Source: Shigella phage Sd1
Sequence record: MF158042
DNA length: 48,262 nucleotides
Reading direction: 5' to 3' (one strand)
The stretch's first letter is position 1; every line of letters begins with the position of its first letter. Both the position numbers and the translations under genes were made by a program. Below the pieces are notes generated by a model, which worked only from the letters and a program-made list of their open reading frames with translations, searched no databases and was not told the DNA's origin. Below are positions 1,169 through 45,259 of this stretch, piece by piece.

Positions 1169-1211
1169 AATATACCCCATCGTTTGATTTTCGTTTTAGC
1201 TATTCGTGCTG
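1169..1211 (-). promoter_or_regulatory. Palindrome-type promoter P1 (tagctattcgtgctg, 22-bp spacer, TATATT)
   Basis: Member of repeated architecture: TAGCA-N5-TGCTA site, 22 bp, -10-like hexamer, leader ctccatcgaaacaaaac. Confidence 0.55.
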
Positions 1212-1215
1212 TTTA

Positions 1216-2343
1216 TTACATTCCTGGGCGGTAAATGAATCGACCAATCTCACCAAACTTCTTGTGGTAAACAATTACTGCAGCCTGTCGATAGCTCCTC
1301 CAACCACCACGAGCAGCGTAAGCATCCTTACTCGCTAGCGCCGGGTGAACCTCGTCAATACCAAGAGTGCATTCTGTTACTGTTGCATGATGGAAGTGGC
1401 CTGAGTGGCAATAAACAAACTCACATTCACCAAAGTCCTTGCGATAATCAGTGGCCATTGCAGAAAGTCTTCCCTCAGCTTTCTTCATGGTGTGACCATG
1501 AGTATAACCAAGCAATGTAGACCCGTAGCGAGTCTTGTGCATGATTGCAGGACTAACATCAACATAGACTCGTGGCTCATTGTCATAGAATGCAGCCATT
1601 GCAGCGCGCAGCCAAATCATTGATGCCTGATCGTGGTTGCCTTCAATAACCTGAATCTCAACCTCTTTATGCTTCATTAGCATCTTAGTTACAGTTGCAC
1701 GCAGAGATCGAATAGCAACATATACCAACTTGGCAAATCGACTATCCTGATCAAGTACGTGCTTACTTGCTGGTGTAACCGCATCAAGACCATCAGAGTG
1801 AAGGAAATCACCTCCAATCAGAAGCACTGCCTTCTCTGAATTTGGAGCTTTGCTAATTGAATAGTCAAAGTATGAATTCATCAACTTTTCAGCTGTTGAC
1901 GTGTCGTAGTTCTCACCAGCCTCGTGGGCGTGAGCCATCATGCCAATGTGAATGTCAAAAACCGGGTAAAGCGTTAACGTCTCATCGAAATCAACTTTAT
2001 CACTCTCAACAACTTCAGCCTTCGGGAGTTCTGAGCAAAATGCCTCTTTTGCTTGAGTCATAATCTCTTCAAGTCGCTCATTATCAATACTAGTCTTCAC
2101 CCATCGAATCTTCTCGTTACCTTCAGCATCAATCATGGTTGAAGTTCCTTTAACCATGTAGCCATCTGGAACTAGCTTCTTGATACCTTCATTTCCGTGA
2201 CCATCACCAGCTTTGGCCAGCTTGCTACGACGCAATTCAACGTTGCGAATGTTCATTCCGTACTTCTCTGCGATCGCCTTATTGGTCATTCCATTTTCAA
2301 GTTCTTCGCGTAGTTGTTCGTTGCTAATCTTTGCAGTTGCCAT
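1216..2343 (-). CDS. Calcineurin-like metallophosphoesterase with N-terminal HTH region
   Basis: Motifs DIHIG, GGDFLHSD, GNHD, HGHT, HSGHFHH in translation; N-terminal segment NKAIAEKYGMNIRNVELRR looks like a helix-turn-helix. Confidence 0.6.
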   Translation of the reverse strand: MATAKISNEQLREELENGMTNKAIAEKYGMNIRNVELRRSKLAKAGDGHGNEGIKKLVPDGYMVKGTSTMIDAEGNEKIRWVKTSIDNERLEEIMTQAKEAFCSELPKAEVVESDKVDFDETLTLYPVFDIHIGMMAHAHEAGENYDTSTAEKLMNSYFDYSISKAPNSEKAVLLIGGDFLHSDGLDAVTPASKHVLDQDSRFAKLVYVAIRSLRATVTKMLMKHKEVEIQVIEGNHDQASMIWLRAAMAAFYDNEPRVYVDVSPAIMHKTRYGSTLLGYTHGHTMKKAEGRLSAMATDYRKDFGECEFVYCHSGHFHHATVTECTLGIDEVHPALASKDAYAARGGWRSYRQAAVIVYHKKFGEIGRFIYRPGM

Positions 2344-2426
2344 TATATAAGTTCCTTAATTCATTACGATAAAGTATAGGATAGTAAAGCTAAACAGTGG
2401 TGCTAATGCTACTAGTATAAGGCTCT

Positions 2427-2678
2427 TCATTCAACTTCTTTCAACCAGTAGTCGATAACTTCCTCACTAATTGCTAATTTCTTGTCAAGGTCAGTCATGC
2501 ACAGATTTCCGCATGCCGGAGAGTAGTAAATCTGCACCCACTTCCCGTCTTTAGTTTTTGCATTCACATCTACATAATCAGGAGGCAACCAGTCAGCAAT
2601 AGGTATCACTCTAAACTTCGCTCCACTTTGCCCATACACTAAATCGTAATGCTCTGGCTGAAAATCAAAACCCAACAT
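2427..2678 (-). CDS. Hypothetical protein
   Basis: ORF in early block. Confidence 0.4.
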   Translation of the reverse strand: MLGFDFQPEHYDLVYGQSGAKFRVIPIADWLPPDYVDVNAKTKDGKWVQIYYSPACGNLCMTDLDKKLAISEEVIDYWLKEVE

Positions 2679-2680
2679 AC

Positions 2681-2929
2681 TTAATCCTTAGGCTTCGTTA
2701 TCTTAAACTTGAATCCCTCAGATTTAAGGAATTCATTAACATCAATTCTCACACCTGGCTTAACTCTTACGTATTTTCTTGGGCGTTCATCCATGTAAGA
2801 GAATTTCCCATTAAACACAACACTGATATCTTTTATGTCAAAGAATCGGGATATCTGCTTAATGTCACATTGCAAGCCAGCCTCTCCACAATGCGCCCAT
2901 ACAGCGGCGCGTCCGGTTTCAACTATCAT
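2681..2929 (-). CDS. Hypothetical protein
   Basis: ORF in early block; start overlaps upstream small ORF stop (ATGA). Confidence 0.4.
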   Translation of the reverse strand: MIVETGRAAVWAHCGEAGLQCDIKQISRFFDIKDISVVFNGKFSYMDERPRKYVRVKPGVRIDVNEFLKSEGFKFKITKPKD

Positions 2930-3051
2930 AATCCGTAAGCCATTTTCAGGTATTCTTTAGCGCACATCCAAAGATAGTCGCAACTTTGATTTACCGCCGC
3001 CTTTGAATATATCTGAGCAAGGTCGAACATCTCTTTGTCTACAATTTTCAT
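2926..3051 (-). CDS. Hypothetical small protein (41 aa), not in ORF track
   Basis: ATG 30 nt downstream of a palindrome-type promoter; ATGA overlap with next gene. Confidence 0.3.
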   Translation of the reverse strand: MKIVDKEMFDLAQIYSKAAVNQSCDYLWMCAKEYLKMAYGL

Positions 3052-3081
3052 CTCTCAATCCTCTGCGCTGTTGATGTGTTT

Positions 3082-3124
3082 AATATAATCCATCCGTGGA
3101 TTTTAGTTTTAACAAAAAGTGCTA
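3082..3124 (-). promoter_or_regulatory. Palindrome-type promoter P12 (variant site taacaaaaagtgcta, 22-bp spacer, TATATT)
   Basis: Same architecture; site overlaps stop codon of upstream gene. Confidence 0.5.
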
Positions 3125-3313
3125 TTCGACTAAGAAACTAACTTCCTTTCCGTTCGAATCTCTGCACCCGTAATATCCATCACCTTGATAACTAACGAAC
3201 CATTGGCAACCATCGTCGCTTTCTACTGTTATTTCACCATCTGAATGAAAGTTAATTTCGTAATCATCGAGCAGTGTAAAGTGTCCATTTGTTTTTACAC
3301 AGATGCCAGTCAT
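3122..3313 (-). CDS. Hypothetical protein (start at MTGICV)
   Basis: ATG with ggag SD 8 nt upstream; ORF track start is a TTG further upstream. Confidence 0.4.
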   Translation of the reverse strand: MTGICVKTNGHFTLLDDYEINFHSDGEITVESDDGCQWFVSYQGDGYYGCRDSNGKEVSFLVE

Positions 3314-3531
3314 AAGAAATACTCCGGGCAATCTTTCTTCATTTCTTCAATGTCAGCAACCATACGGTCGCGCCATGTTTCGATATCTGTTTTCAGGTAA
3401 TCTTCTTCGAAACTATAATCAAGGCACCACGCTAAATCCCAAACGTCATGTTTATATCCAGACTTGGTCAACTCCTGAGCCACCATCGCCTGAAAGAGTT
3501 CCCATTGCTTATCAAAAGTTAATTTTTTCAT
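3310..3531 (-). CDS. Hypothetical protein
   Basis: ORF, start/stop overlaps with neighbours. Confidence 0.45.
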   Translation of the reverse strand: MKKLTFDKQWELFQAMVAQELTKSGYKHDVWDLAWCLDYSFEEDYLKTDIETWRDRMVADIEEMKKDCPEYFL

Positions 3532-3689
3532 TATTCTGACACTCCAAATCCATCAATTAGCCTAATAGGAACAACAACCTCACATCCACCATCAATTACG
3601 AAAACAAACTTGTCAATGTATTGTGAGAATGTGTTGAATAAGAATTTTGAATCCTCTCCGGTTTTCCAGTTTACGATTGCCTCTCTCAT
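3531..3689 (-). CDS. Hypothetical small protein (52 aa), not in ORF track
   Basis: ATG overlapping stop of upstream gene (ATGA), open to TAA. Confidence 0.3.
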   Translation of the reverse strand: MREAIVNWKTGEDSKFLFNTFSQYIDKFVFVIDGGCEVVVPIRLIDGFGVSE

Positions 3690-3886
3690 TCTGATACCTC
3701 ATCAAACTTTTCACCAAATGCGTTTTTAACAGTTTCCAGGTCATCTTTGTATGTTGGGCTAACCTCGAATGCGTAACCATCGTTATCATCAAGTGAATAT
3801 CCGGAATCTGAAATAACAAGCTCATATTGATAACCAGTCTTGCGTGATTCGTAGATTTTTCCAGTAAATATAGTGATAGCAGCCAT
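3686..3886 (-). CDS. Hypothetical protein (start at MAAITIF)
   Basis: ATG preceded by conserved leader cttcatcgaaacgaaacgcagagagagaaacaaa and promoter P2. Confidence 0.45.
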   Translation of the reverse strand: MAAITIFTGKIYESRKTGYQYELVISDSGYSLDDNDGYAFEVSPTYKDDLETVKNAFGEKFDEVSE

Positions 3887-3922
3887 TTTGTTTCTCTCTC
3901 TGCGTTTCGTTTCGATGAAGTG

Positions 3923-3965
3923 ATAATACACCACCTCACCGATTCGTCTTTAGCAATTCGTGCTA
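3923..3965 (-). promoter_or_regulatory. Palindrome-type promoter P2 (tagcaattcgtgcta, 22-bp spacer, TATTAT)
   Basis: Same architecture; site overlaps VRR-NUC stop codon. Confidence 0.55.
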
Positions 3966-4382
3966 TTTTGAAATCATTTCTTTGAATGCCGCAAGAAAAC
4001 CTTCACGCCCATAAGCCACAGCTGCGAAACCCCCTGCTTCCCTTACGCTTTTTAAGAAAGCCTTTTGGTCTTCACTGACTGGACTAGCCTGAGTTTTTCC
4101 CGCCCTCTTTAGCTCTATAGCTCCAAATGGATATCTTCCTCGCAATGATTCAGGTATCAGAAAAAAGCAATCTGATACGCCCTTAAGGAGGCCTTTTGCC
4201 GCATCCTTTCTGGCTGCGCACATTGATTTCTTTCCCTCATTAACGGTATGCCAATAGAGAATCTGAGGGTGGTTATACTTAACCCAATCAGAGCAAAAGA
4301 TTTGTTCGTCATCCTCCTTTGGGCATGACTTAACCGGGCCCTGGTAAAACTCAATGTAATCCTCTTTATCTGTAATTTTCAT
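3963..4382 (-). CDS. VRR-NUC domain nuclease
   Basis: Translation contains GVSDCFFLIPE...GAIELKRAG...SEDQKAFL pattern typical of VRR-NUC; start at MKITDK with ggagg SD. Confidence 0.6.
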   Translation of the reverse strand: MKITDKEDYIEFYQGPVKSCPKEDDEQIFCSDWVKYNHPQILYWHTVNEGKKSMCAARKDAAKGLLKGVSDCFFLIPESLRGRYPFGAIELKRAGKTQASPVSEDQKAFLKSVREAGGFAAVAYGREGFLAAFKEMISK

Positions 4383-4383
4383 C

Positions 4384-6378: not shown

Positions 6379-6423
6379 ATCTAAATTCCTATAAAAATTG
6401 TCTTGTAGCGTTTAATTGAGTAC

Positions 6424-6466
6424 AATACTACCATCAAATCGGAATGACTTTTAACAAAAAATGCTA
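6424..6466 (-). promoter_or_regulatory. Palindrome-type promoter P13 upstream of helicase (variant site taacaaaaaatgcta)
   Basis: Palindrome, about 21 bp, TAGTAT-like -10 on the minus strand; lies in divergent region with the plus-strand gene at 6480. Confidence 0.4.
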
Positions 6467-6479
6467 TTGAGGTGGTGAA

Positions 6480-6965
6480 ATGAATGCAGTTGACAAGCGA
6501 ACCATTAATGGTAACAACGGAACAGTCCGCACTGAGGACAAAAGGCAACGCAAGCGACCTTCAGGTTACTACGTTTTAAAAGATGAAGTAAGGGCCGGAC
6601 TGCGCGCACGGCTAGAGATGGTTCTTGATTTCTTCGGCACAAAGGCAAACATAGCAAAGCAGTTAAAGGTAACCCCACAGGCTGTAGAGGAATGGTTTAA
6701 GCGTGGTATGATTTCTGCGCGTGGGGCTCAACTTTCGCACAACTACTACAAGCGAAATGGAGAAGGTTTTCGAGCCACATTCTGCCGACCGGACCTGCAA
6801 TTCGACGGCAACGGCAAGCCATTAACGCTTCGCTGCAAAAAGCGTCACATGCTGCGCGTCGTAACCGAGGCTGAACTAGCCACCAAGCCAGAGTGTCGAT
6901 CATGGCGCAAGATTAAGGAAGAGAATCGTAAAAAGCGAGAGGCAGAGAAAAACAGCACGATTTGA
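6480..6965 (+). CDS. Putative HTH DNA-binding protein
   Basis: Segment IAKQLKVTPQAVEEWFKRGMIS resembles Cro/YdaS-like HTH; gaggtggtg SD. Confidence 0.45.
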   Translation: MNAVDKRTINGNNGTVRTEDKRQRKRPSGYYVLKDEVRAGLRARLEMVLDFFGTKANIAKQLKVTPQAVEEWFKRGMISARGAQLSHNYYKRNGEGFRATFCRPDLQFDGNGKPLTLRCKKRHMLRVVTEAELATKPECRSWRKIKEENRKKREAEKNSTI

Positions 6966-7020
6966 TAAACAATGGCACTGTGCTTTATGTATAGTGCCTT
7001 TATTGTTTATGGAGGTATAC

Positions 7021-7947
7021 ATGAATCATCACGACAAGAATGAAGTAATATCTAAAATGAAAGGGATGTGGGGTGATTTTTACTCGTCACAACTAGGTTG
7101 GACAAGAGAGAATCTAAGTAAGAAACACGGCCCTTGCCCTAGCTGCGGTGGGCGTGATAGGTTTCGCTTCACTGATGAGTTGGGCCAAGAAAAGGGGAAT
7201 GGCTCAGCAATATGTAACCAATGCGGTAATGATAGTGGTGTAGGCTGGGTAATGAAGTGCTCTGGAATGAGTTATAGTGAAACAATAGATACACTTGGTG
7301 ATTGGCTGAATCTCGTTCCAATAGAGGTTATATCAAAAGCAAACAAAAGAGCATCAAGAACTTCACCGTATAAGATGGGGTCGCAAATGGACCATGAAAA
7401 ATGCTGGGAGATAATGCTTAGAACTGAAGTTGTAGAATCAACTCCACTCAGTACATACGAGGGTATCTATAGCGAGTTTGGTTTTGATGTTGGCCGGACA
7501 AAGTCAGGAGAAATAATTCACGCAATACCGTGCTTTATGGCATATGATGATGGCATATCAGAAGAGATGTGCAATGTGATGTTTATTAACGAGGAAGGAG
7601 ATGTTAGCTATGCTGCAAAAGATTATTCACGTCAGTCTGTGGCTGTTATTGGTTCCCTTAAGGATGATGAGTTCGCTTATTTGGTCGATAATTGGATTGA
7701 TGGTGTTCGCGTTCATCTTGCTACTGGGAACCGCTGTGTGCTTGTTTGCCACTCAAGCTACAACATGGAAATGATTGCTTACGCGCTTAGAAACTACAAG
7801 TTACGCATCGCTTGTACTCGCCACGATTTTGATTTACTCGCTGTTGCTGACGACCGCAATCTTGATATTGTAATACCAAATGATGATAACCACTTCAAAT
7901 CAGGAATAAGAAAGCGAATATACAAAGCAAGTGAATTGCTAGACTAA
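7021..7947 (+). CDS. Putative DNA primase (zinc-ribbon type)
   Basis: N-terminal CPSCGG...CNQCGN zinc-binding motif; ATG with perfect ggagg SD; sits beside the helicase. Confidence 0.55.
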   Translation: MNHHDKNEVISKMKGMWGDFYSSQLGWTRENLSKKHGPCPSCGGRDRFRFTDELGQEKGNGSAICNQCGNDSGVGWVMKCSGMSYSETIDTLGDWLNLVPIEVISKANKRASRTSPYKMGSQMDHEKCWEIMLRTEVVESTPLSTYEGIYSEFGFDVGRTKSGEIIHAIPCFMAYDDGISEEMCNVMFINEEGDVSYAAKDYSRQSVAVIGSLKDDEFAYLVDNWIDGVRVHLATGNRCVLVCHSSYNMEMIAYALRNYKLRIACTRHDFDLLAVADDRNLDIVIPNDDNHFKSGIRKRIYKASELLD

Positions 7948-7969
7948 CCTCCTTCGGGAGGTTTTTTTA
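7946..7969 (+). terminator. Rho-independent terminator after primase
   Basis: aacctcc-ttcg-ggaggtt stem-loop followed by TTTTTT. Confidence 0.75.
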
Positions 7970-7995
7970 TACCTGAAAGATGCTACAATCCAACT

Positions 7996-8010
7996 TAGCA
8001 ATTCGTGCTA
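7996..8010. promoter_or_regulatory. Palindrome site S3 (tagcaattcgtgcta) 25 bp upstream of tailspike start
   Basis: Perfect copy of the palindrome but no -10 at the usual plus-strand spacing; possible operator or antisense promoter. Confidence 0.35.
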
Positions 8011-8034
8011 TTTTACAAATGGAGACTTTACACA

Positions 8035-11732: not shown

Positions 11733-11775
11733 ACTATACCTCACCTATTAAATGTTGTTTTAGCAATTAGTGCTG
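11733..11775 (-). promoter_or_regulatory. Palindrome-type promoter P4 (tagcaattagtgctg, 22-bp spacer, TATAGT)
   Basis: Same architecture; site overlaps exonuclease stop codon. Confidence 0.55.
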
Positions 11776-12728
11776 TTTTCGTATTTCTTCATCTCATATT
11801 CTGGTATCTGTAAATCCATTTCCGTTTCGCCAAATCCGTAACCAGGCCATATATCAAGTTTCTTGCATTGTTTGTATGTTGATAAGGCGCTCATGTACTG
11901 TAATCTACCAACTTTCAAATGCTCCTTTGTTATTGTGTAGCACATTGGTAGGTACGGACTCTCTTTTTCCTGCGCCAATAGCTGAACAACAACTCGCCTC
12001 TTTTCATTAAAGGCTCGCACAAACAGGTCATGCTGAAGTGCCATTTTTAACAAATAACCATGCTTAAAGGCAAGGCGACCGAAACCTGACGGAGAGGCGT
12101 CGCTAGTTGTTTTGTAATCTCGGATATAAACAACATCACCAACAACATCAACATGATCCAGCCTTACCTTAACTCCGCACTCGTTAATCTCGCCGAAGAT
12201 TGATAACTCTCGCTGAGCGGTTTCACTGTTAACTATGGCGTTGTAAGCGGGAATGCCACACAACACTTCTCTCATCGCCTGTACAGTGTCAAAGTCCTTA
12301 GCCAATACAATCTCGCGGCCTTCGGCTTTAATCTCGCTAGAGCGCTGGATATCCCACCATACGTTTAGTGATTCGCCAGTCAGCGCCAGCATCTCCATCA
12401 ATTCGGGATAATCCTTCCCGGAAGTACCAGCAATACCCATAGACTTCAATCGAGTTGCTAAGGCTGCTTTACTGGTAATAAGGTCTTCAAACTCTTCCTG
12501 TGCTGGCTGTCGGTAATAAGTAGAATCGAATACTGAGTTTTCAAGAATAACCGTATGGGCTAGAGTGCCAAACTTAAGCGCCTTACTCTCGTCATCATGC
12601 TCAGCGTATTTATATGCAGCAGGGCAAGTTGAGAATATGTGAGCCAGACCAGAGCCAGACACATGGTCAGACTCCTGATGGTAGGCTTCGTTGGTTAACT
12701 CATCGTTAGTGTAAACCTTGAAGCTCAT
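11760..12728 (-). CDS. PD-(D/E)XK family exonuclease (recombination partner of annealase)
   Basis: Motif block VRLDHVDVVGDVVYIRDYKTT (D...D/E-x-K) in translation; position next to annealase and SSB. Confidence 0.55.
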   Translation of the reverse strand: MSFKVYTNDELTNEAYHQESDHVSGSGLAHIFSTCPAAYKYAEHDDESKALKFGTLAHTVILENSVFDSTYYRQPAQEEFEDLITSKAALATRLKSMGIAGTSGKDYPELMEMLALTGESLNVWWDIQRSSEIKAEGREIVLAKDFDTVQAMREVLCGIPAYNAIVNSETAQRELSIFGEINECGVKVRLDHVDVVGDVVYIRDYKTTSDASPSGFGRLAFKHGYLLKMALQHDLFVRAFNEKRRVVVQLLAQEKESPYLPMCYTITKEHLKVGRLQYMSALSTYKQCKKLDIWPGYGFGETEMDLQIPEYEMKKYENSTNC

Positions 12729-13787: not shown

Positions 13788-13830
13788 ACTATACCCATTC
13801 ATGAAGCATCCGTTTTGATTATTCGTGCTG
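13788..13830 (-). promoter_or_regulatory. Palindrome-type promoter P5 (degenerate site tgattattcgtgctg, 22-bp spacer, TATAGT)
   Basis: Same spacing and -10 as the other copies; left arm degenerate. Confidence 0.45.
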
Positions 13831-14189
13831 TTTTGTATATCGCTGTAAAACGCACCAAAATACGTTTTGCGACTCAGTACGCCGCATGAATGCTGAATGT
13901 AACTCTTGTAACCAATGTATCCACCAATTTTGCACCCTATCTATATCTATATGCATTTCCTCCTTAACAGGAAATCAAACATAGTCTTTTATAAAAACAT
14001 ACCAACATAGCTATAGAGAGTAGTTACAAGATATACATAGTAATATATATAATAATAATAATACTCTAAAACCTTATTATATAAGGATTCTATAGTGTAA
14101 CTAATGCGTATCTGTGCGTAAAAAGCGTATACAATTTTCTGCGGATGAGATTGTATACATCGAGTTACATCGGTTACGCGTATATAAAA

Positions 14190-14233
14190 TAGCACGATTT
14201 GCTAAAGACTACCGCATCAGCCTTTGCTATAGT
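14190..14233 (+). promoter_or_regulatory. Palindrome-type promoter P6 (tagcacgatttgcta, 23-bp spacer, TATAGT)
   Basis: Followed by leader tactccatcgaaacgaaac and ATG at 14274. Confidence 0.55.
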
Positions 14234-29640: not shown

Positions 29641-29668
29641 ACAAAAAAATAGCACCCCGAAGGGTGCT
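29641..29668 (-). terminator. Rho-independent terminator after major capsid gene
   Basis: gcaccc-cgaa-gggtgc stem followed by TATTTTTTT on the minus strand. Confidence 0.6.
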
Positions 29669-29689
29669 TGTCATTGTCAAAAAGTGCTA
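29645..29689 (-). promoter_or_regulatory. Palindrome-type promoter P14 for HNH gene (variant site tagcactttttgaca, hairpin in spacer, TATTTT)
   Basis: Palindrome site right after capsid stop, GC hairpin in spacer, -10-like T-rich hexamer. Confidence 0.4.
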
Positions 29690-30637
29690 TTAAGCAAAAG
29701 TAATGCCCTTCATGACAGCCATCGTTAAAGGCCTAAACACGATCAGACCAGTTGCTTTAGAAGTCACTGGAACGCGGAAGTGCAGGTCTCGCGGCTGAGC
29801 AGGCAGAGCGTTTGTCGGCTCGGTGATCTCGATCGCCATGTTGTTAGCGTCTTTCTCATAAGCGATAGCTGCAGAGGTACCAGTTCCATTGTAATCATTC
29901 AGGTACTGAACAAACTCAACGGTTACGCCGCTATTGTTCTGGCGGAAGAATTCACCATAGCTAACAGACGTGCCAGGAACCAGGTTCTGCATAATACGAC
30001 GAGCGGTAGTAGGAAGAAGCAGGTGCGTAGCGCGGTGCTGACCGTTAGTTGAAGTCTCGATAATATCCAGCAGGCTTGTAATATCGCTTACCGCTGTAGT
30101 AGGTTGAGACCATGAGCCACCGCTAACAACGTTGTTGATATTTGGATAGTCGAACACGCTAGGGATTCCGTGAACGGTAGAGCCTGACCATACCAGTTTA
30201 TCAAGAAGCTTGTCGTGCGCTTCGAAAGCCAGAGACTGCTTGCGAGCAGACAGTGACTGACCAGTAGCCTGACCAACTTTAATTTCATCGATAGAAATCA
30301 GGAAAGCGTTACCGAAACGGAAAACTTTACCCTGGCGTTCAGTTGCCAAAGCATCAACCAGCGGCAGGTCATCAGTGTAGTCAGCTACGATCTGAGCAAT
30401 TCCAACACCATCAAATACCGGATACTCAAAGTACTTAGCGTAGCCAGGGATTTCATTGCTAACAGGGAACAGGTTTACTACGGAGTTCTGATCGTACTCA
30501 GTTTCGTAAGCTTTATTCAGGCTTGCAGTGAGCTGCTTCACGGTCCAGATACCAGCCGCGTCGGCTTTATCAACACCCATTGCGCGCAGGTGGTTAGTAA
30601 TCTTTTCTTGCTCGAAAGCGTCAAGTTTGATAGTCAT
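29690..30637 (-). CDS. Putative major capsid protein (start uncertain, 30637 or 30649)
   Basis: About 315 aa; sits in head module downstream of protease/scaffold and small Gly-rich protein; followed by strong terminator. Confidence 0.5.
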   Translation of the reverse strand: MTIKLDAFEQEKITNHLRAMGVDKADAAGIWTVKQLTASLNKAYETEYDQNSVVNLFPVSNEIPGYAKYFEYPVFDGVGIAQIVADYTDDLPLVDALATERQGKVFRFGNAFLISIDEIKVGQATGQSLSARKQSLAFEAHDKLLDKLVWSGSTVHGIPSVFDYPNINNVVSGGSWSQPTTAVSDITSLLDIIETSTNGQHRATHLLLPTTARRIMQNLVPGTSVSYGEFFRQNNSGVTVEFVQYLNDYNGTGTSAAIAYEKDANNMAIEITEPTNALPAQPRDLHFRVPVTSKATGLIVFRPLTMAVMKGITFA

Positions 30638-36943: not shown

Positions 36944-36986
36944 ATTATACGCCATCCCTGGCGATTGTATTTAGCAATTCGTGCTA
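36944..36986 (-). promoter_or_regulatory. Palindrome-type promoter P7 (tagcaattcgtgcta, 22-bp spacer, TATAAT)
   Basis: Perfect palindrome overlapping TerL stop codon, consensus -10, leader caactcatcaaaacgagagg. Confidence 0.6.
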
Positions 36987-38564
36987 CTTCACTCCAGCTA
37001 GTCGCATCAACCTGGCCCTTGGGTCATCACTTAAGTTCAACTCACAGTTGATTGCCATTGTTGTAGTATCGACAATGTCATCATGCGGATGTGAATCGTC
37101 AGCAGTAAACGCAGAGAACTCAGTTAATAGCGAAGTAAGCCATGGCGCAGAGTCTGGAAGAACTACGTTACCAGCCTTAATCTGTGGCAATGCGCTCATC
37201 ACCCTGGTTAACTTATCTGTATCAGGAACGAAAGGATCGATAGGAGTTCGCATTGTTCGGCCTGCTGACTGGATAAGGCCGATACCAGACGCCTTCTTCT
37301 CTATAATAACCTTGCGCAAGATTCCATCTGTTTTACTGGTGGCTCTGTGCTTGCTCTCAAAGTCAAGAAGAGCCTGCTCAAGCTCTGGAGCCTCCCATTT
37401 GCCTCTTACCATATCCAGAAGGTAAAGCTTGTTACCCTTACGTCCCCACAACTGAAATACAGAGTAGTCGCTATAACTCTTCGTCGTCATGGCGGTATCA
37501 GCCGTAATGAAGCGGTAGTCATACTTGACTGGCGGCCTGTTATTCTCATCAAGACGAACAAACCAATCGACGTTTATCAGGTTTCCACCTAGAGCTACTG
37601 GAGATTGTTGGTACTGGCTTAGGAATGTGTACGGGTCTGAATCCCACATCGCCACTAAGTCATGCACAGATTCCTTTTGCGGGAAATAGCTATAGTACTT
37701 GACCCCATCGCGCTCAACTGATTCAGATGACAGGACGTCCCTTTCGAATTGCTCACGAATCCAGTCAGGAAGGTCATTCACGTAATCTTCAGTAACCAGC
37801 GCCGGTATTTTAACCACATCAAAGTCGATACCCATGCCTCCAGAAGTCATGAACCACGTTGAATCCTGCGTATGAAGCCTTTGCTGAATTGACAGAATCG
37901 GCGTAGCTTTACCTTTAACACTGCTAGCCCTACGAGAACGGATGGTGTTCTTGAGTAAAACGTGTACAGCTTCACGCCTAACCTTGCTGAGCATATCGTC
38001 TGGCTTGTCTGGGTCATCAAGCATCAAGCAGCCACTATAAGTTTCAGTAATATAACCGCCACGCGCACCAGTAATCTGACCGCCAATTGCTTTCGATATA
38101 GCTTCGAATCTAACCTTGCCACTCCCATCAAGAACCTGAATCTCGTCATCTTTGCACGTACCGAACTTACAGGGCCATAGCTCCTGAAACTCAGCTGACT
38201 TGATAAGGTCGCGAACTCGCTTTGAGTTACGCTTCACGAGGCTATCGGAGAATGAAAGGCTCAGGTTTCTCACTTTCTTTAGCTTAAGCATTGAGTACAC
38301 CGGAAAGTGGATTGAAGTAATCTCAGTTTTACCGGCCCCGGGAGCTACGTTAATGATAGTATCCCTACGCTCCCCGCTGATAACCTCGTCAATGATTCGG
38401 CAAAGGTACTTATGATGCCAGTTAGGGATGTATCGCTCGCCTTGAGTTAACTGAAACCACACCCGAAGGAATGCTTCAAAGCTATGAGTGGATAACGCCT
38501 TAATTGCCAGCTTTTCGGCTGGCGTCATATCTTCCCAAGCTAGTGTATTCATAGTACAAGCCAA
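36984..38564 (-). CDS. Terminase large subunit
   Basis: Walker A NVAPGAGKT, Walker B-like LMLDDPD, C-terminal nuclease-like acidic residues. Confidence 0.7.
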   Translation of the reverse strand: MACTMNTLAWEDMTPAEKLAIKALSTHSFEAFLRVWFQLTQGERYIPNWHHKYLCRIIDEVISGERRDTIINVAPGAGKTEITSIHFPVYSMLKLKKVRNLSLSFSDSLVKRNSKRVRDLIKSAEFQELWPCKFGTCKDDEIQVLDGSGKVRFEAISKAIGGQITGARGGYITETYSGCLMLDDPDKPDDMLSKVRREAVHVLLKNTIRSRRASSVKGKATPILSIQQRLHTQDSTWFMTSGGMGIDFDVVKIPALVTEDYVNDLPDWIREQFERDVLSSESVERDGVKYYSYFPQKESVHDLVAMWDSDPYTFLSQYQQSPVALGGNLINVDWFVRLDENNRPPVKYDYRFITADTAMTTKSYSDYSVFQLWGRKGNKLYLLDMVRGKWEAPELEQALLDFESKHRATSKTDGILRKVIIEKKASGIGLIQSAGRTMRTPIDPFVPDTDKLTRVMSALPQIKAGNVVLPDSAPWLTSLLTEFSAFTADDSHPHDDIVDTTTMAINCELNLSDDPRARLMRLAGVK

Positions 38565-39459: not shown

Positions 39460-39475
39460 TAGGATGCTCCATGAT

Positions 39476-39551
39476 TGGCGTTCCGCGCTGGACTCGAACC
39501 AGCAACTGAGACTTAGGAGGTCTCTGCGTTATCCTGTTACACCAGCAGAAC
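39476..39551 (-). tRNA. tRNA-Arg (anticodon CCU)
   Basis: Manual fold: acceptor GTTCTGC/GCGGAAC, D-arm GTGT/ACGC, anticodon stem GAGAC/GTCTC with loop CTCCTAA, T-arm GCTGG-TTCGAGT-CCAGC, discriminator G and encoded CCA. Confidence 0.6.
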
Positions 39552-39556
39552 TTAAT

Positions 39557-39630
39557 TGGCACGGGATGTTGGAATCGAACCAACCTCTTTGGTTTTGGAG
39601 GCCACTATTCTACCAATGAACTAACCCCAT
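39557..39630 (-). tRNA. tRNA-like gene, possible tRNA-Trp (anticodon CCA); anticodon stem non-canonical
   Basis: Acceptor ATGGGGT/ATCCCGT with two G-U pairs, D-arm GTTC/GAAT, T-arm GTTGG-TTCGATT-CCAAC, encoded CCA; anticodon stem has only 3 Watson-Crick pairs. Confidence 0.4.
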
Positions 39631-40882: not shown

Positions 40883-40912
40883 TTCTGCTTCCTCGTTCGT
40901 TTCGATTTAGTA

Positions 40913-40955
40913 ATAGTATCGCATCCTTGCGATTGATGTTTAGCAATTAGTGCTA
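40913..40955 (-). promoter_or_regulatory. Palindrome-type promoter P8 (tagcaattagtgcta, 22-bp spacer, TACTAT)
   Basis: Same architecture. Confidence 0.5.
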
Positions 40956-40956
40956 T

Positions 40957-41292: not shown

Positions 41293-41548
41293 ATATCAAT
41301 CCTCACGCTCTTCAGGAAAGCTGATACCAAGCTCATCTCCATCGCACCTAGTTGGCTCGCCATATCCTTCATATAGTTCGATGCATTCATCAATGTAAAA
41401 ATTACTGTATTCGCCATTATGAATCTTCATATCTCAATCCTCGTTATTGTGCCGCCATGCGTCTTCTGCATCAACATGGCGTATCTATCGTCTACATAGT
41501 GCAGGAGCATATCAATACCCCTGCTACTGAACTTGTGTTCGTAGATTA

Positions 41549-41788: not shown

Positions 41789-41830
41789 GTTAGCTTCCTC
41801 TCGTTTAATTGCCTTTGCTTCAATAAGGCC

Positions 41831-41873
41831 ACTATATCAAATGGCCTTGCGGAAGGTTTACCAATTCGTGCTA
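41831..41873 (-). promoter_or_regulatory. Palindrome-type promoter P9 (taccaattcgtgcta, 22-bp spacer, TATAGT)
   Basis: Same architecture; site overlaps stop codon of upstream gene. Confidence 0.5.
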
Positions 41874-42074
41874 TTGCGGTTTATTATTTTTGTTATACCA
41901 CTCAGCACAGGATATCCACGCAAAGAATGCCGTATTTGTTTGTAAATCAATATACTGCTGGTCTTCGTGCTTAGTCATTGGGTATTGGGTTCTCTGCAAG
42001 TCAAATCCAGTTTTCTTGGTGGCCCAATGCTCGAAGTCTTCTCTGACATTTTTGCATTCGTCTAAATCAAACAT
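41871..42074 (-). CDS. Hypothetical protein
   Basis: ORF. Confidence 0.4.
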   Translation of the reverse strand: MFDLDECKNVREDFEHWATKKTGFDLQRTQYPMTKHEDQQYIDLQTNTAFFAWISCAEWYNKNNKPQ

Positions 42075-42622: not shown

Positions 42623-43252
42623 GTTAATACCTCGTTTGGTTTACTTCGTTTCAGTGATTGCTATATTGCCACCTATTTACGTGTCGGTCAATGTATATTT
42701 TAGTATATTTTATCATGGATACGCATTTTTCCTCTCTAGCCCGCACCAGCACGGATTGTAAACCTGCCGTATCCCCTGTATACAGTTTTTTGAGGTTATT
42801 TCCTATATATGCGCCTTTTTATTCCTACAATATCATCCCTTTCTGACAGGTGTCAGAATATATGCGCGGAACATATCAACCATTCCATCCATGACCGGTA
42901 TACACGGTATACATATATATAATAATAATAATAATAATAGAGTAAAAGGTTGATATATATAGATATTATATTGTATATCGAGTGTATATTGGCGTAAAAA
43001 ACGTAGGTTAGTGTTCACTAACTTTTGTGACGACACTGAGTATACGTAGGATACGCGTATATCATTAAATGGCTCAGCAAGAATCAAAATCAACTTGTAT
43101 GGTAGTCCATCCATCTTTCATTCACTCACTCATCAATTCATTGCTCAATTCGCAACAATCAAAAACATCATTGCATCTGAAGCAACATTGCTATATGTGC
43201 AATAATCATGTGAATCATTGCAATAGCTGCAACAAACCATAAATCGAACGAA

Positions 43253-43296
43253 TAGCACTTTTTGCTAATGACCATTCAGCCCTGATTGGTTATATT
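43253..43296 (+). promoter_or_regulatory. Palindrome-type promoter P10 (tagcactttttgcta, 23-bp spacer, TATATT)
   Basis: Perfect-arm palindrome, -10, leader cattacatcaacaacgaggag. Confidence 0.55.
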
Positions 43297-43324
43297 CATT
43301 ACATCAACAACGAGGAGATAAAAC

Positions 43325-43549
43325 ATGAATGCGATTATCATTAACAACGAAATCAAGTATGACAAAGATGCATTAAGCCTGGCTGATATGGGTTATGAAA
43401 TTGGTGAGAAGGTTCACCTATCAGTTTGCCAGTTAAGTGGTGAGATGTACTTAACTGTTAAGCAAGACTTAGTAATCGATGGAATCGTTGCTGTCTATGC
43501 TGGAGAAGAGATTTGCGTTAGTGACGATGAAGTGGAGATGATGGCATGA
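43325..43549 (+). CDS. Hypothetical protein
   Basis: ORF. Confidence 0.4.
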   Translation: MNAIIINNEIKYDKDALSLADMGYEIGEKVHLSVCQLSGEMYLTVKQDLVIDGIVAVYAGEEICVSDDEVEMMA

Positions 43550-43785
43550 AGGTTCGCTGCACTAACGTCATCCAGAGCACAGATAAGAAAGTATTAACGC
43601 CGTTCGTAAAAGGCTCTGTATACGACGCTGATCCGCTAATCATTAACGGCAAGACAATCCCGAACGAATGGGTAATTAATGGTGCTGAGAGACCGCACAA
43701 GCACGATACGGGGTGGATTGCTATTGCTGGTTGGAAGGTTGGTATGTTTATCCCTGGCATCGCAACTTTTGACGAGGTGAAATAA
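43546..43785 (+). CDS. Hypothetical protein
   Basis: ORF, ATGA overlap with upstream gene. Confidence 0.4.
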   Translation: MKVRCTNVIQSTDKKVLTPFVKGSVYDADPLIINGKTIPNEWVINGAERPHKHDTGWIAIAGWKVGMFIPGIATFDEVK

Positions 43786-43937
43786 TGCTTAAGCCATCTG
43801 ATTTGAACTATTATGATCTAGAAACTATAGCTAAATACAGCGGCAAAGGTTGGCCTGTTGGTGACTACTTCAAGGAAGATTTAATTGAAAGCTTTGAAAT
43901 AACACAGAAAGCAATTGAGAAGGCAAAGAAGAAATGA
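43785..43937 (+). CDS. Hypothetical small protein (50 aa), not in ORF track
   Basis: TAATG and ATGA overlaps with neighbours indicate translational coupling. Confidence 0.3.
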   Translation: MLKPSDLNYYDLETIAKYSGKGWPVGDYFKEDLIESFEITQKAIEKAKKK

Positions 43938-44617
43938 AAAAGGTAATTTACTGCCTGTTTGATGGTTCAGGTATCGCTGGCCTGCCATGGGCTGAGAATG
44001 GTCACACAGTCTACTGCTTCAACGCGGACTCAGGTAATCATGGCGAATATCACATTAAGATGCAGCATGAGAATATCCACTATATCAACATGTGGATTGA
44101 TAAGGATTTCATCACTAAGTGCGAATTGCTCGGGCTTCCTCCGGCGCAGATGGTTATCGGCTTCCCTGATTGCACGCTGTTCTCTCAGTCAGGATCACAG
44201 CATGAGCGGGGTGAAGATGAACTGGCGTACGCCCTGGCTAATGCTAAGCTTGTCGAAGAGGTTGGCAATCACTTTAATGCTCCATGGATGGTTGAGAATC
44301 CGGTAGGTAAGCTGTCAACTCTATGGCGTAAGCCTGATTTCTATTTCAACCCGTATGAGTACGGAGGGCTAATGAATGCTCATGATCTGCCGTACCACGA
44401 AAAAATGCCAAAATACGACGGATACACCAAGAAAACTTGCATCTGGCATGGCAACGGATTCGTTGAGCCAGTGAAGAATCCCGGGCCGATTAACATCGGT
44501 TTCTTTTGGGGATGGAAGTACCTCGGCGGGAAGTCTGCTAAGACTAAGCAGTTGCGCTCACTGACTCCACGTGGATTTGCGCGCGCCGTATACCTGGCGA
44601 ATCATTTAACCAAATAG
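43934..44617 (+). CDS. Compact DNA methyltransferase-like protein (C5-cytosine MTase-like motifs)
   Basis: Motif I-like LFDGSGIAG near N-terminus, motif IV-like GFPDCTLFSQSG, motif VI-like ENPVG; no DPPY/NPPY seen. Confidence 0.45.
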   Translation: MKKVIYCLFDGSGIAGLPWAENGHTVYCFNADSGNHGEYHIKMQHENIHYINMWIDKDFITKCELLGLPPAQMVIGFPDCTLFSQSGSQHERGEDELAYALANAKLVEEVGNHFNAPWMVENPVGKLSTLWRKPDFYFNPYEYGGLMNAHDLPYHEKMPKYDGYTKKTCIWHGNGFVEPVKNPGPINIGFFWGWKYLGGKSAKTKQLRSLTPRGFARAVYLANHLTK

Positions 44618-44657
44618 CACGAATTGCTAAAGCCCTTCGGGGCTTATGCTGTATATT
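44615..44657 (+). promoter_or_regulatory. Palindrome-type promoter P11 (tagcacgaattgcta, hairpin in 22-bp spacer, TATATT)
   Basis: Site overlaps MTase stop codon; spacer contains agccc-ttcg-gggct hairpin; leader catatcatcgaaacgaaac. Confidence 0.55.
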
Positions 44658-44695
44658 CATATCATCGAAACGAAACACACTAAAGGAAAGTAATC

Positions 44696-45049
44696 ATGGC
44701 TACCACTCTGACTAAGAATTTTGTTTCTAGCGAAAACAAGTTATATAAAGCTCGAGTAAAAGATGGTGTAGAGCAAATTAAACTCGATGGAAAATGGGTT
44801 AACCTAGGAATGATGGGTCATTACATTAAAACAAAGACACTGCTTTGCACCAAGGTTGACCATAGCAATCCGCTAAAGAAATCTTTCACTGAAGGCAAGC
44901 GTTATCAGATTGATATGCACGCAGGGTTGGGTCGCAATGCTGGCTATATCTATGATAATGACGGTGACGGATGGCAGCTCACTCTCGATGATGAAGTTGG
45001 TTATGATGTTGGTTTTGGAATGTATAAATTTGAGGCCGCTTACAAATGA
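44696..45049 (+). CDS. Hypothetical protein
   Basis: ORF. Confidence 0.4.
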   Translation: MATTLTKNFVSSENKLYKARVKDGVEQIKLDGKWVNLGMMGHYIKTKTLLCTKVDHSNPLKKSFTEGKRYQIDMHAGLGRNAGYIYDNDGDGWQLTLDDEVGYDVGFGMYKFEAAYK

Positions 45050-45231
45050 AGAGGATTAGAGTTTTATGCTCGGCCACCAGAGATATAGTGGTAGGTGGCG
45101 AAGTAATAATAAAGGCTGGACATACATTTAAGTGCTATATGGTTGGTGTTGGTCATTATTATGTCAATAGAAAAGGGATGAGATTTAACTTGATTGATGG
45201 TGAGTTTAAAGTAAATAGCATTTTTTGTTAA
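45046..45231 (+). CDS. Hypothetical protein
   Basis: ORF, ATGA overlap. Confidence 0.35.
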   Translation: MKRIRVLCSATRDIVVGGEVIIKAGHTFKCYMVGVGHYYVNRKGMRFNLIDGEFKVNSIFC

Positions 45232-45259
45232 TGACACTACCCGCTTCGGCGGGTATATT
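45216..45259 (+). promoter_or_regulatory. Palindrome-type promoter P15 (variant site tagcattttttgtta, hairpin in 23-bp spacer, TATATT)
   Basis: Site overlaps stop codon; spacer contains cccgc-ttcg-gcggg hairpin; leader caatcgataacaacgagagag. Confidence 0.5.

Follow-up and report, generated by a model that had tools for sequence, protein, structure and literature searches.

Our analysis of the 48,262-nucleotide stretch of Shigella phage Sd1 (MF158042; the whole stretch is hereafter the window), an Rtp/T1-like phage of the Drexlerviridae, indicated a recurrent family of about 15 compact intergenic modules that are probably sigma70 promoters of the class II mar/sox/rob type, with the host activators MarA, SoxS and Rob (or RamA) as their likely readers. 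This assignment is suggested by four observed properties, namely the sequence match of the box to the E. coli marbox, its orientation, its spacing from the -10 element, and the conservation of these features across the phage family. Phage gene expression would thereby probably be tied to the host stress and drug-resistance regulon.

The phage boxes share an oriented 20-mer, ATAGCAC-nnw-TTGYTAAAAc, that conforms to the E. coli marbox consensus AYnGCACnnWnnRYYAAAYn (published as AYnGCACnnWnnRYYAAAY), with about 21 of the 22 bits of consensus information matched. Taken unchanged, the E. coli consensus occurs in the window 9 times exactly and 16 times with at most one mismatch (1.94 expected); combined with TANNNT at a fixed distance, it gave 12 matches (0.91 expected). 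The MarA ChIP-seq consensus, gcactaattgctaaa, was matched at 15/15 positions by two window sites, at 14/15 by three, and with up to three mismatches by 15, against 2.48 expected. The E. coli genome contains about 10,000 matches to relaxed marbox definitions; only strict matches together with the fixed geometry carry weight here. The modules of the window are listed in the table.

Table. Promoter modules and the backward box in the window; genes served are predicted, and the original list is that of the original prediction.
Feature	Coordinates	Strand	Box	Gap; -10	Gene served	Remarks
Module 1	1169..1212	-	ACAGCACGAATAGCTAAAAC (1193-1212)	18 bp; TATATT (1169-1174)	61-aa ORF (start 1135) preceding lysis genes	Predicted transcription start near 1162; placement backed by synteny with JulesPiccard/Rtp
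Module 2	3082..3125	-	ATAGCACTTTTTGTTAAAAC	18 bp; TATATT	41-aa ORF (start 3051)	Box TAG is stop codon of upstream ORF
Module 3	3923..3966	-	ATAGCACGAATTGCTAAAGA	18 bp; TATTAT	66-aa ORF (start 3886)	14/15 to MarA consensus; box TAG is stop codon of VRR-NUC gene
Module 4	6424..6467	-	ATAGCATTTTTTGTTAAAAG	AGTATT/TATTGT	664-aa helicase (start 6378)	Back-to-back with promoter and Shine-Dalgarno sequence of divergent pir-like gene
Module 5	6952..6995	+	ACAGCACGATTTGATAAACA	18 bp; TATAGT	Primase gene (start 7021)	Overlaps 3' end of pir-like gene; absent from original list
Backward box	7992..8011	-	ATAGCACGAATTGCTAAGTT			Exact palindrome; absent from original list; opposed to flanking + strand genes; 6 nt 3' of TGcTACAAT (7978-7986); ~35 nt 5' of tail-fibre start codon
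Module 6	11733..11776	-	ACAGCACTAATTGCTAAAAC	18 bp; TATAGT	77-aa ORF (start 11703), then Erf-like recombination gene	15/15 to gcactaattgctaaa
Module 7	13788..13831	-	ACAGCACGAATAATCAAAAC	18 bp; TATAGT	Rha-domain gene	No dyad; 18-nt core of marbox consensus matched exactly
Module 8	14189..14233	+	ATAGCACGATTTGCTAAAGA	19 bp; TATAGT	Small ORF (start 14274) at Rtp45 position (cor region)	
Module 9 (atypical)	29646..29690	-	ATAGCACTTTTTGACAATGA	T-tract/-10 TATTTT	196-aa ORF (start 29616)	3' of capsid gene; terminator hairpin GCACCCTTCGGGGTGC within gap
Module 10	36944..36987	-	GTAGCACGAATTGCTAAATA	18 bp; TATAAT	108-aa ORF (start 36914)	14/15; box TAG is stop codon of large terminase gene
Module 11	40913..40956	-	ATAGCACTAATTGCTAAACA	18 bp; TACTAT	56-aa ORF (start 40882)	15/15 to ChIP consensus, 20/20 to AYnGCACnnWnnRYYAAAYn
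Module 12	41831..41874	-	ATAGCACGAATTGGTAAACC	18 bp; extended -10 TGaTATAGT	79-aa ORF (start 41788)	
Module 13	43252..43296	+	ATAGCACTTTTTGCTAATGA	TATATT	74-aa ORF (start 43325)	-35-like ATGACC 17 bp from -10
Module 14	44614..44657	+	ATAGCACGAATTGCTAAAGC	18 bp; TATATT	117-aa ORF (start 44696)	14/15; hairpin GCCCCTTCGGGGC in gap; box TAG is upstream stop codon
Module 15	45215..45259	+	ATAGCATTTTTTGTTAATGA	TATATT	527-aa helicase (start 45292)	-35-like ATGACA 17 bp from -10; terminator-like hairpin 45238-45255 in gap

The same layout was observed across the phage family. In 395 unique family sites, the -10 hexamer TAtaaT begins at +37, counted from the T that opens TAGCA; a good -10 was present in 338 of them, lying within 1 bp of +37 on either side in 292 (86%), and the gap between the 20-mer and the -10 was 18 bp in 240 and 17-19 bp in 292 of these 338. 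The family profile further comprises T+34 and G+35 (TGn), TATAaT from +37 to +42, and C+48 and A+49. Such promoters number 15-24 per roughly 48-kb genome, and T1, Rtp and JulesPiccard each contain 9-15 exact marbox hits, against 0 in the T7 control. Within the pir/helicase spacer of 10 genomes, in which Pir is 47-93% identical, the box is near-invariant and the -10 is retained, whereas the gap sequence is unrelated.

The repeat itself is not a new observation: it was published in 2024 by German, Misra, Kropinski and co-authors as a 21-nt direct repeat, aaATAGCACnnnTTGnTAAAA, present at 21 sites in TLS and noted also in T1, Rtp and Rogue1, oriented with transcription and located ~76 nt 5' of start codons, with a stoperator, an enhancer site or a UP element as suggested roles (PMC11447400). 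This is the same element as the window box, but it was tied there neither to a fixed-distance -10 nor to the marbox, both links being drawn here. The same paper described a family-wide scarcity of canonical sigma70 promoters (PMC11447400), and no enrichment of these was found in the window.

The original prediction described compact promoter modules that form one family throughout the genome, built on a palindrome and driven by a dimeric phage- or host-encoded protein, and much of this description stands. TAGCA-N5-TGCTA (TAGCANNNNNTGCTA) occurs exactly 7 times in the window against 0.05 expected, and 12 times with at most one mismatch against 2.07 expected. Each of the 14 sites in the list was found, yet those at 1197 (3/5 dyad positions) and 13816 (0/5) are not palindromes, and the list lacked 7996 (- strand, an exact palindrome) and 6952 (+ strand, 5' of the primase gene). 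The proposed 22-bp (21-24) spacing holds, except that at 29675 the -10 is TATTTT, one base further out, with a hairpin in the spacer; the TGn extension and the inverted repeat around the -10 had been overlooked. We also observed the conserved leader, (t)ACyCCATCGAAACGAAAC plus a GAGG Shine-Dalgarno sequence, and the overlap with upstream stop codons, in which the box TAG doubles as the stop at 3110, 3951, 36972, 41859 and 44615 of the window and, when four genomes are taken together, at 26 of 85 sites. As proposed, TTGCTA is too distant from the -10 to serve as a -35 hexamer, and the centre of the element near -41/-42 corresponds to the class II activator position.

The claim that a dyad read by a dimer defines these sites was not supported, since the element is directional and its sequence is that of a marbox, a site for monomeric two-HTH AraC-family readers. 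Judged from its conservation, the box is a directional element, not a true dyad: G2 is conserved at 0.99 in the family profile, whereas its dyad mate C12 reaches 0.60; A(-1), C5, Y12 and A15-A16 are conserved without dyad mates, and all are predicted by the marbox consensus. Moreover, 15 of the 16 window boxes face the downstream gene, and the sites at 1197 and 13816 have lost the dyad while keeping the asymmetric marbox. Conservation at T0 and A1 goes further than the marbox consensus demands, a feature that speaks against the marbox reading and for a dimeric reader.

The most plausible dimeric reader, and the leading phage candidate of the original prediction, would be the Cro-like T1 Pir homologue encoded at 6480-6965, which would bind the dyad at -42 as a class II activator; we consider this unlikely. 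The exact palindromes and the Cro-type HTH of Pir are consistent with such a role, as is the occurrence of Pir in 823 phage records, apparently all from Drexlerviridae, a distribution that matches that of the element; Pir is also a proven regulator that in T1 activates Pdam, a box module, and represses its own promoter, a box sitting between that promoter and the pir start codon. The activation of Pdam is itself a point against the marbox reading. However, the Pir recognition helix varies in its predicted base-contacting residues among genomes with an identical box, and a dimer does not account for the asymmetric conservation with flanks (A-1, A15-A16) on the same strand, for boxes oriented with transcription or for the layout kept at dyad-less sites. 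In T1, Porf65, likewise a box module, is independent of Pir, whereas Phol and PrecE are Pir-regulated without a box. The activity of both Pdam and Porf65 could be measured with GFP reporters in E. coli cells free of phage, and Pdam was also assayed in a host-only cell-free lysate; together with the Pir independence of Porf65 and the scarcity of canonical sigma70 promoters, this lends the marbox reading indirect support.

A different reader, either host Lrp or a phage-encoded protein of marbox-like specificity that has escaped recognition, appears slightly less probable than Pir. The SELEX consensus of Lrp in the literature, YAGHAWATTWTDCTR, has the same outer arms and 15-bp span, the TAGCA...TGCTA arms fit YAGHA...TDCTR, and variants with a TTT centre match at 13 of 15 positions. 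This amounts to about 15 bits of a palindromic motif that fails at C5/G6 and predicts neither the asymmetric flanks nor the fixed 18-bp gap, whereas the marbox accounts for about 21 of 22 consensus bits in addition to orientation and spacing. Among phage proteins, T1 Orf65 activates its own box promoter and represses pir, but no Orf65 homologue was found in the window, Rtp or JulesPiccard, and sequence searches of the window revealed no MarA homologue or other AraC-type protein.

The closest likeness to the phage modules is found in the E. coli class II mar/sox/rob promoters (micF, inaA, nfo and sodA; lpxC P2, lpxL P1 and rfaY P1), in which class II denotes a forward marbox overlapping the -35, with its centre between -36 and -55. 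These promoters have the same forward, asymmetric 20-bp marbox over the -35 position, with its centre near -41 (the RamA/micF site lies at about -41), and likewise sigma70 -10 elements. The gap read directly from MG1655 for micF, inaA, nfo and sodA is the identical 18 bp, so that micF reads ACAGCACTGAATGTCAAAAC-18-TAGAAT and the phage site ATAGCACGAATTGCTAAAAC-18-TATAAT. The phage sites differ in belonging to a lytic phage at the density given above, in lying much nearer the consensus than most chromosomal marboxes (0-1 versus 1-3 mismatches in the 20-mer), in their fixed T0 and A1 and frequent use of TAG as a stop codon, and in carrying a hairpin or terminator inside the gap or around the -10; their binding by MarA, SoxS or Rob is predicted. 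Among phage systems, lambda cI at OR2/PRM and Mu Mor and C also combine an activator site near -42 and a proposed contact with sigma region 4 with the lack of a good -35, but their sites are true dyads read by phage-encoded dimers, whereas the window site is asymmetric and a suitable phage protein was not found. In T4 middle promoters, an activator box containing TGCT (the MotA box, tTGCTTtA) similarly replaces the -35 while the sigma70 -10 is kept; these depend on phage MotA and on sigma appropriation by AsiA, and their MotA box has its centre at -30 and a spacer of about 12 bp, the window box lying 10 bp further upstream.

From these features we infer the binder, the transcription starts and activation by binding. 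The 20-bp marbox would extend in forward orientation from about -50 to -31 (centre near -41), overlapping the -35 hexamer position, and would be followed by the 18-bp gap, an extended -10 (tGnTATAaT), a predicted start at the CA ~7 nt past the -10, and an A-rich leader with a GAGG ribosome site. The box would be bound by a monomeric two-HTH activator from the MarA/SoxS/Rob family (in Klebsiella, RamA), one helix reading GCAC and the other AAA 7 nt downstream, in line with the reported reading of CAC(G/T)-7N-AAA by MarA; as at micF, this activator would then touch sigma70 region 4 and the alpha-CTD and bring in RNA polymerase. The extended -10 may supply some activator-independent basal activity, as has been reported for the lpx and rfaY promoters. 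The apparent palindrome is built into the optimal marbox (GCActaatTGCta) and is reinforced because the box TAG often also ends the reading frame of the upstream gene. Against this reading, unstressed cells contain little MarA and SoxS and keep most Rob sequestered; a lytic phage dependent on them would run a risk. Moreover, marA, soxS and rob are not known to have surfaced as T1 host factors; three-way redundancy and basal extended -10 activity could mask their role.

It is improbable, more so than a reading by Lrp or another protein, that these are plain, activator-free extended -10 sigma70 promoters whose box is kept as a stop-codon/terminator cassette, a stoperator-like roadblock or a module-shuffling junction. 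TGn is frequent, the box often provides the upstream stop codon, hairpins or terminators occur within the gap, and a stoperator was raised by the TLS authors (PMC11447400). Nevertheless, 20 near-invariant positions are maintained at a fixed 18-bp distance in a family whose proteins have diverged to <50% identity, and they coincide with a known activator site in active geometry, so stop-codon or junction needs cannot explain the box.

Least probable, and very much so, is an element acting at the RNA level, with transcription starting just past TTGCTAAAA (TGcTAAAAc serving as the extended -10) and the hairpin and TATAnT lying in a structured 5' UTR, or with the palindrome forming a hairpin in read-through RNA. 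Folding of the region from +17 to +61 is stronger than that of shuffled sequence (mean z -1.9), with a slight advantage in stability for the sense over the antisense strand. Yet the essential T at -7 is missing from TAAAAC, the box stem would have 5 bp only, and a strong hairpin occurs at only about half of the sites, compared with a -10 at a fixed distance in 86%; TATAnT, TGn and a CA seven bases on form a textbook -10/start arrangement.

Apart from the promoter modules, backward boxes lie just 5' of late genes at 7996 in the window and at 34903, 18835 and 15071 in T1, an arrangement that misfits class II and counts against the marbox reading.

Our data make it fairly likely that the palindrome-bearing intergenic sites of the window belong to one family of sigma70 promoters of the class II mar/sox/rob type, for which host MarA, SoxS or Rob would probably be the activator. 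The 48,262-bp window appears to be a complete genome, and megablast groups it with Rtp/T1-like siphophages of the Drexlerviridae (~80% identity to JulesPiccard, Rtp and kin). Most genes lie on the minus strand, with plus-strand blocks at 6480-10293 and 43325-47310. Genes for tRNA-Arg(CCT) and tRNA-Trp(CCA) stand side by side at 39476-39630 (minus strand); a single tRNA-Arg has been reported in related phages.

A pattern search of the window recovered all 14 sites of the original prediction and confirmed that TAGCA-N5-TGCTA is commoner than chance, with 7 exact copies against 0.05 expected and 12 at no more than one mismatch against 2.07 expected. One further forward module (box, gap, -10 hexamer and leader ahead of a gene) and one further exact palindrome were added (see table). 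Read towards the gene, the common layout is aaaTAGCAC-nnn-TTGyTA-aa, about 20 variable bases, gTATAnT, the leader (t)ACyCCATCGAAACGAAAC, GAGG and ATG, in agreement with the conserved leader described earlier behind the TATANT hexamer. Many intergenic gaps of 55-100 nt are occupied by these modules, and the overlap with upstream stop codons noted earlier was seen at five window sites, where the TAG of the box is itself the stop. Among the 85 boxes of four genomes, TAG is the upstream stop in 26, and the TAA at the 3′ end of the box serves as the stop in 7 more.

The repeat has already been published and is not new. A 2024 re-annotation of phage TLS described a 21-nt direct repeat, aaATAGCACnnnTTGnTAAAA, at 21 places, oriented with transcription and ~76 nt upstream of start codons; its authors also placed the repeat in T1, Rtp and Rogue1, offered a stoperator, an enhancer-binding site or an UP element as possible functions without choosing among them, and listed only three sigma70-like promoters in TLS. 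New in the original prediction was the constant spacing between repeat and -10 box.

The published consensus of MarA/SoxS/Rob sites, AYnGCACnnWnnRYYAAAY, is degenerate and asymmetric, and the phage profile agrees with every specified position of this marbox except the last Y, variable position 12 (Y) included. With the unmodified E. coli consensus, the 18-nt core gave 9 exact matches in the window and 16 at no more than one mismatch (1.94 expected), and the consensus joined to TANNNT at a fixed distance occurred 12 times (0.91 expected). The 16 window boxes (oriented 20-mers around the palindrome) differ from AYnGCACnnWnnRYYAAAYn at 0-3 positions, 11 of them at 0-1. The consensus marbox of the MarA ChIP-seq study of Sharma et al., gcactaattgctaaa, of which at least 13 of 15 positions were required there, is matched at 15/15 by window sites 11759-11773 and 40939-40953, at 14/15 by three more sites and at 13/15 by four more boxes; at no more than three mismatches, the window holds 15 matches against 2.48 expected. 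The palindrome is largely built into an optimal marbox, because gcactaattgctaaa already has GCA...TGC, TT at positions 9-10 and a terminal TA. The mar operon's own marbox in MG1655, ATGCCACGTTTTGCTAAATC, is identical to the phage sequence ATAGCACTTTTTGCTAAAAC at 16 of 20 positions. Since relaxed marbox definitions match ~10,000 sites in E. coli, only strict matches and geometry were taken as evidence. Exact consensus matches number 9-15 each in T1, Rtp and JulesPiccard and 0 in T7. The exact consensus with TANNNT at the set distance was found in 108 stretches of IMG/VR; the matches listed lie almost all on Drexlerviridae-sized contigs (mostly 43-53 kb; a few shorter, probably incomplete), and IMGVR_UViG_2974508417_000001 carries the same two exact consensus-marbox modules as the window. 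T0 and A1 of the phage box are fixed beyond the marbox consensus, for which the use of TAG as a stop codon may be the reason.

The original prediction had the dyad read by a dimer. A profile with the T of TAGCA as position 0 was built from 395 unique sites, which came from IMG/VR contigs as well as from the window, T1, Rtp and JulesPiccard. G2 is conserved at 0.99 and its dyad mate C12 at only 0.60, being merely a pyrimidine, and these core frequencies are inflated because the sites were chosen with the core pattern, which leaves the flanks and the downstream profile unaffected. Both ends carry A on the same strand, A-1 standing opposite A15 rather than T, and C5 and T9 face each other, both conserved and non-complementary. 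Two equivalent, symmetrically conserved half-sites were therefore not found. Functional-looking sites also exist with 0-3 of the five dyad positions: site 1197 (ACAGCACGAATAGCTAAAAC) has three and site 13816 (ACAGCACGAATAATCAAAAC) none, and both keep the exact 18-nt marbox core, the 18-bp gap and the TATAnT box. In 15 of the 16 window boxes GCAC is distal and AAA proximal to the -10 box, so that they point at the next gene; the exception, 7996, is backward. A monomeric protein with two HTH motifs predicts both the dyad-less functional-looking sites and the gene-ward orientation, whereas a dimer on the dyad predicts neither, and the dimer reading is accordingly not supported.

Box profile (395 sites; core frequencies inflated by selection with the core pattern) and coordinates of the features described
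Feature	Genome or set	Position	Detail
Profile, upstream flank	395 sites	-1	A 0.91
Profile, first arm and C5	395 sites	0-5	T, A, G, C, A, C (C5 0.93)
Profile, inner centre	395 sites	6-8	variable; 7-8 = A or T
Profile, T9 and second arm	395 sites	9, 10, 11	T 0.97, T 0.98, G 0.99
Profile, second arm	395 sites	12	C 0.60 / T 0.32
Profile, second arm and flank	395 sites	13, 14, 15, 16	T 0.97, A 1.00, A 0.96, A 0.88
Profile, downstream	395 sites	+34 to +49	T+34, G+35 (0.69); TATAaT +37 to +42; C+48, A+49
Added forward module	window	6952-6995 (+)	upstream of primase gene
Added exact palindrome	window	7996-8010	opposed to neighbouring genes
Box TAG = upstream stop codon	window	3110, 3951, 36972, 41859, 44615	
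TAA at box 3′ end = upstream stop codon	window	11761, 45216	
Leader examples	window	1150-1168, 3904-3922, 44658-44676	
TAATGAC sub-class	window	43268-43296, 45231-45259	
Sites like TAATGAC sub-class	JulesPiccard	39519, 37901	
Pir recognition helix variants	ten genomes		TPQAVEEW, THQTIQQW, SIQVVQQW, TTKVVTGW, TLKVVWGW, SNQTVQGW
Gap-hairpin examples	window	29675, 44615, 45216	
Inverted-repeat examples	window	1150-1195, 3905-3950, 6969-7000, 41810-41858	
Backward box	window	7992-8011	
Backward boxes	T1	34903, 18835, 15071	
Backward box	Rtp	33763	
Backward box	JulesPiccard	27297	
Promoter of pir-like gene	window	6398-6426	TTGTCT-17-TACAAT
-10 of box-driven helicase promoter	window	6424-6429	
AT-rich non-coding regions	window	13830-14200, 42840-43330	
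Counterpart of AT-rich regions	T1	29900-30300	upstream of Pir-repressed recE

The geometry of the modules is that of a class II activator site. Helix 3 of MarA recognises CAC(G/T) and helix 6 an AAA seven bases away; the phage box offers CACG-AATTGCT-AAA or CACT-TTTTGCT-AAA. The 15 forward boxes are followed by a start codon 49-69 nt from the box end, or by the Rha gene. Across the phage family, 240 of 338 sites have a gap of 18 bp between the 20-mer and the -10 hexamer, and 292 have one of 17-19 bp; of the 15 forward modules in the window, 11 show 18 bp and the other four 19 bp. The family -10 is TATAaT, often preceded by TGn, and CA is conserved at the expected start, so the downstream profile can be read as a putative extended -10 followed 7 nt later by a CA start. 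If transcription begins 7 nt past the hexamer, the box occupies -50 to -31 with its midpoint at -40.5, close to the class II position of about -42 proposed earlier for the dyad; it thus overlaps the -35 position, lies within the range of -36 to -55 and keeps a fixed distance from the -10, as defines class II sites. At micF (MG1655), ACAGCACTGAATGTCAAAAC is followed by 18 bp and TAGAAT, and MicF is annotated to begin 7 nt downstream of this hexamer. The promoters of inaA, nfo and sodA have a -10-like hexamer exactly 18 bp past their best forward marbox (MG1655); fumC has no unambiguous -10 at 18 bp. These three and micF are reportedly class II promoters (Martin et al. 1999) and are listed as MarA targets. 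The RamA site at micF lies at ~-41, and micF rather than CRP is the apt comparison for the phage geometry. The extended -10 would fit reports that host class II marbox promoters keep a basal activity without their activator. Collectively, the class II geometry of the original prediction was upheld, whereas its reading of a palindrome bound by a dimer was not supported.

The predicted initial transcribed sequence, the conserved leader at ~+43 to +60 from each box, is A-rich and U-poor, and its predicted start is the A of CATCG. In a sub-class of two window sites, the box ends in TAATGAC instead of TAAAAC, giving a -35-like ATGACC/ATGACA 17 bp from the -10; sites of this kind also occur in JulesPiccard.

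Several other known elements were compared with the box. A standard sigma70 promoter with TTGCTA as its -35 needs a spacer of 16-18 bp, and the 22 bp (21-24) found here is, as originally noted, too long. A sigma54 promoter (TGGCAC-N5-TTGCW) has GG and GC exactly 10 bp apart; the phage sequence is AG-N8-GC (TAGCACGAATTGC), lacking GG and 2 bp short in spacing. The Lrp site YAGHAWATTWTDCTR, a 15-bp dyad with a WATTW centre, fits the arms only, since C5 and G6 break the centre in most sites, and it leaves the directionality and the fixed gap unexplained. An UP element, bound by alpha-CTD, would be A/T-rich from -40 to -60 with no invariant G or C, and G2, C3, C5 and G11 are invariant in the box. 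The T4 MotA box is out of position by ~10 bp.

As for the reader of the box, the original prediction named among its candidates the product of window gene 6480-6965, which we found to be a homologue of the T1 regulator Orf23/Pir and of Rtp52. A total of 823 phage records contain Pir, and all of them seem to be Drexlerviridae; its sole match in a PDB sequence search was P22 Cro, a weak one, and Pfam on ten candidate window proteins gave only a weak Cro HTH (in the Pir homologue) and the Rha domain. In T1 experiments, Phol and Pdam were activated by Pir, Ppir and PrecE were repressed, and the orf65 promoter was Pir-independent. In the T1 sequence, Pdam (box 38954) and Porf65 (box 4345) are box modules, while Phol and PrecE are without a box; the set of Pir-responsive promoters therefore differs from the set with a box. 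Ten genomes with Pir proteins of 47-93% identity share a near-invariant box in the pir/helicase spacer, where the 18-bp gap lacks sequence conservation and a -10 is kept, a classic footprint pattern. The predicted Pir recognition helix changes among these genomes at positions that normally contact bases, so its DNA-reading residues are not conserved alongside the site. This variation beside an invariant box, together with a Pir response not tied to the box, argues against the homologue as reader. T1 Orf65 activates its own box promoter, and it was dropped as a universal reader because the window, Rtp and JulesPiccard contain no homologue. A search with E. coli MarA against all six frames of the window (tblastn and phmmer) found no MarA homologue.

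A site invariant across diverged phages would most simply be read by an invariant host protein, and to our knowledge all known hosts are Enterobacterales carrying MarA, SoxS and Rob (and RamA). Pdam, Ppir and PrecE drove GFP in a host-only cell-free lysate, and T1 Pdam and Porf65 have been assayed as reporters in uninfected cells. Unstressed cells contain little MarA and SoxS, and most of their Rob is sequestered; dependence of the phage on these activators would be conditional or partial.

Evenly balanced, in our judgement, is the broader proposal that Drexlerviridae, including therapeutic Klebsiella weberviruses, rely on near-consensus class II marboxes for most of their early, middle and lysis transcription, with expression driven or tuned by MarA, SoxS, Rob and RamA. 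If so, phages would be produced more efficiently in hosts whose mar, ram or sox regulons are de-repressed, or that encounter bile, salicylate or oxidants, and the dozens to thousands of phage boxes might titrate activators off host defence genes. A lytic phage family would then lean mainly on one host activator regulon, and phage productivity would be tied to clinical multidrug-resistance regulators (marR, ramR and soxR mutants), which would matter for combining phages with antibiotics and for choosing the hosts of Drexlerviridae/Webervirus therapy phages. We know of no RNA polymerase or sigma factor encoded by T1-type phages, and reading the TLS repeat as a class II marbox would explain their apparent lack of promoters. 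Such a link is directly testable and was not found in the searchable literature, though the 2004 T1 genome paper may mention it; transcription start-site mapping in Drexlerviridae was likewise not found in the literature searched. Holding a stop codon, an activator site, an optional terminator hairpin, a -10 and a leader within ~70 bp, the modules would be attractive synthetic-biology parts.

The core promoter is also embedded in an inverted repeat. The stretch from +17 to +61 of the box folds much better than shuffled sequence, with an average z of -1.9 and 45% of the sites under -2, against +0.35 and 4% in a downstream control region. Its sense strand is ~1 kcal/mol more stable than the antisense, a difference whose P value is inflated by the non-independence of the sites. 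In one form, a short GC-rich hairpin lies within the gap, sometimes followed by a T-rich -10; the T1 record annotates such gap hairpins as terminators, and the module would then be a combined terminator and promoter. In the other, the -10 is enclosed by the two arms of a stem, with TGnTATAAT in the loop and the discriminator forming the 3′ arm. Column pairing is strongest at +30:+43, +28:+45, +25:+48 and +29:+44, and the arms vary between sites and between orthologous modules yet remain complementary. A hairpin in fixed register was set aside, as anti-diagonal enrichment in the column-pair statistics was only modest.

Backward consensus boxes lie directly upstream of late-gene Shine-Dalgarno sequences (tail fibre and others). 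The window copy (region 7978-8046) stands 6 nt past TGcTACAAT and ~35 nt before the tail-fibre ATG, an arrangement conserved in T1, Rtp and JulesPiccard at 6-7 nt after an extended -10 (TGaTAAAAT in T1), and T1 has two further backward boxes. These could be marboxes in a repressor position, roadblocks or 5′ RNA hairpins at the mRNA start.

The pir-like gene (6398-6467 region) has a sigma70-like promoter whose -10 overlaps, on the opposite strand, that of the box-driven helicase promoter, and the box of the helicase module falls between the promoter of the pir-like gene and its Shine-Dalgarno sequence. The two promoters probably compete and could form a switch. Two AT-rich non-coding regions of the window, with a T1 counterpart, contain GTATAC, GTTACA/TGTAAC and TATATA repeats and inverted repeats, and are candidate Pir operators or a candidate origin region.
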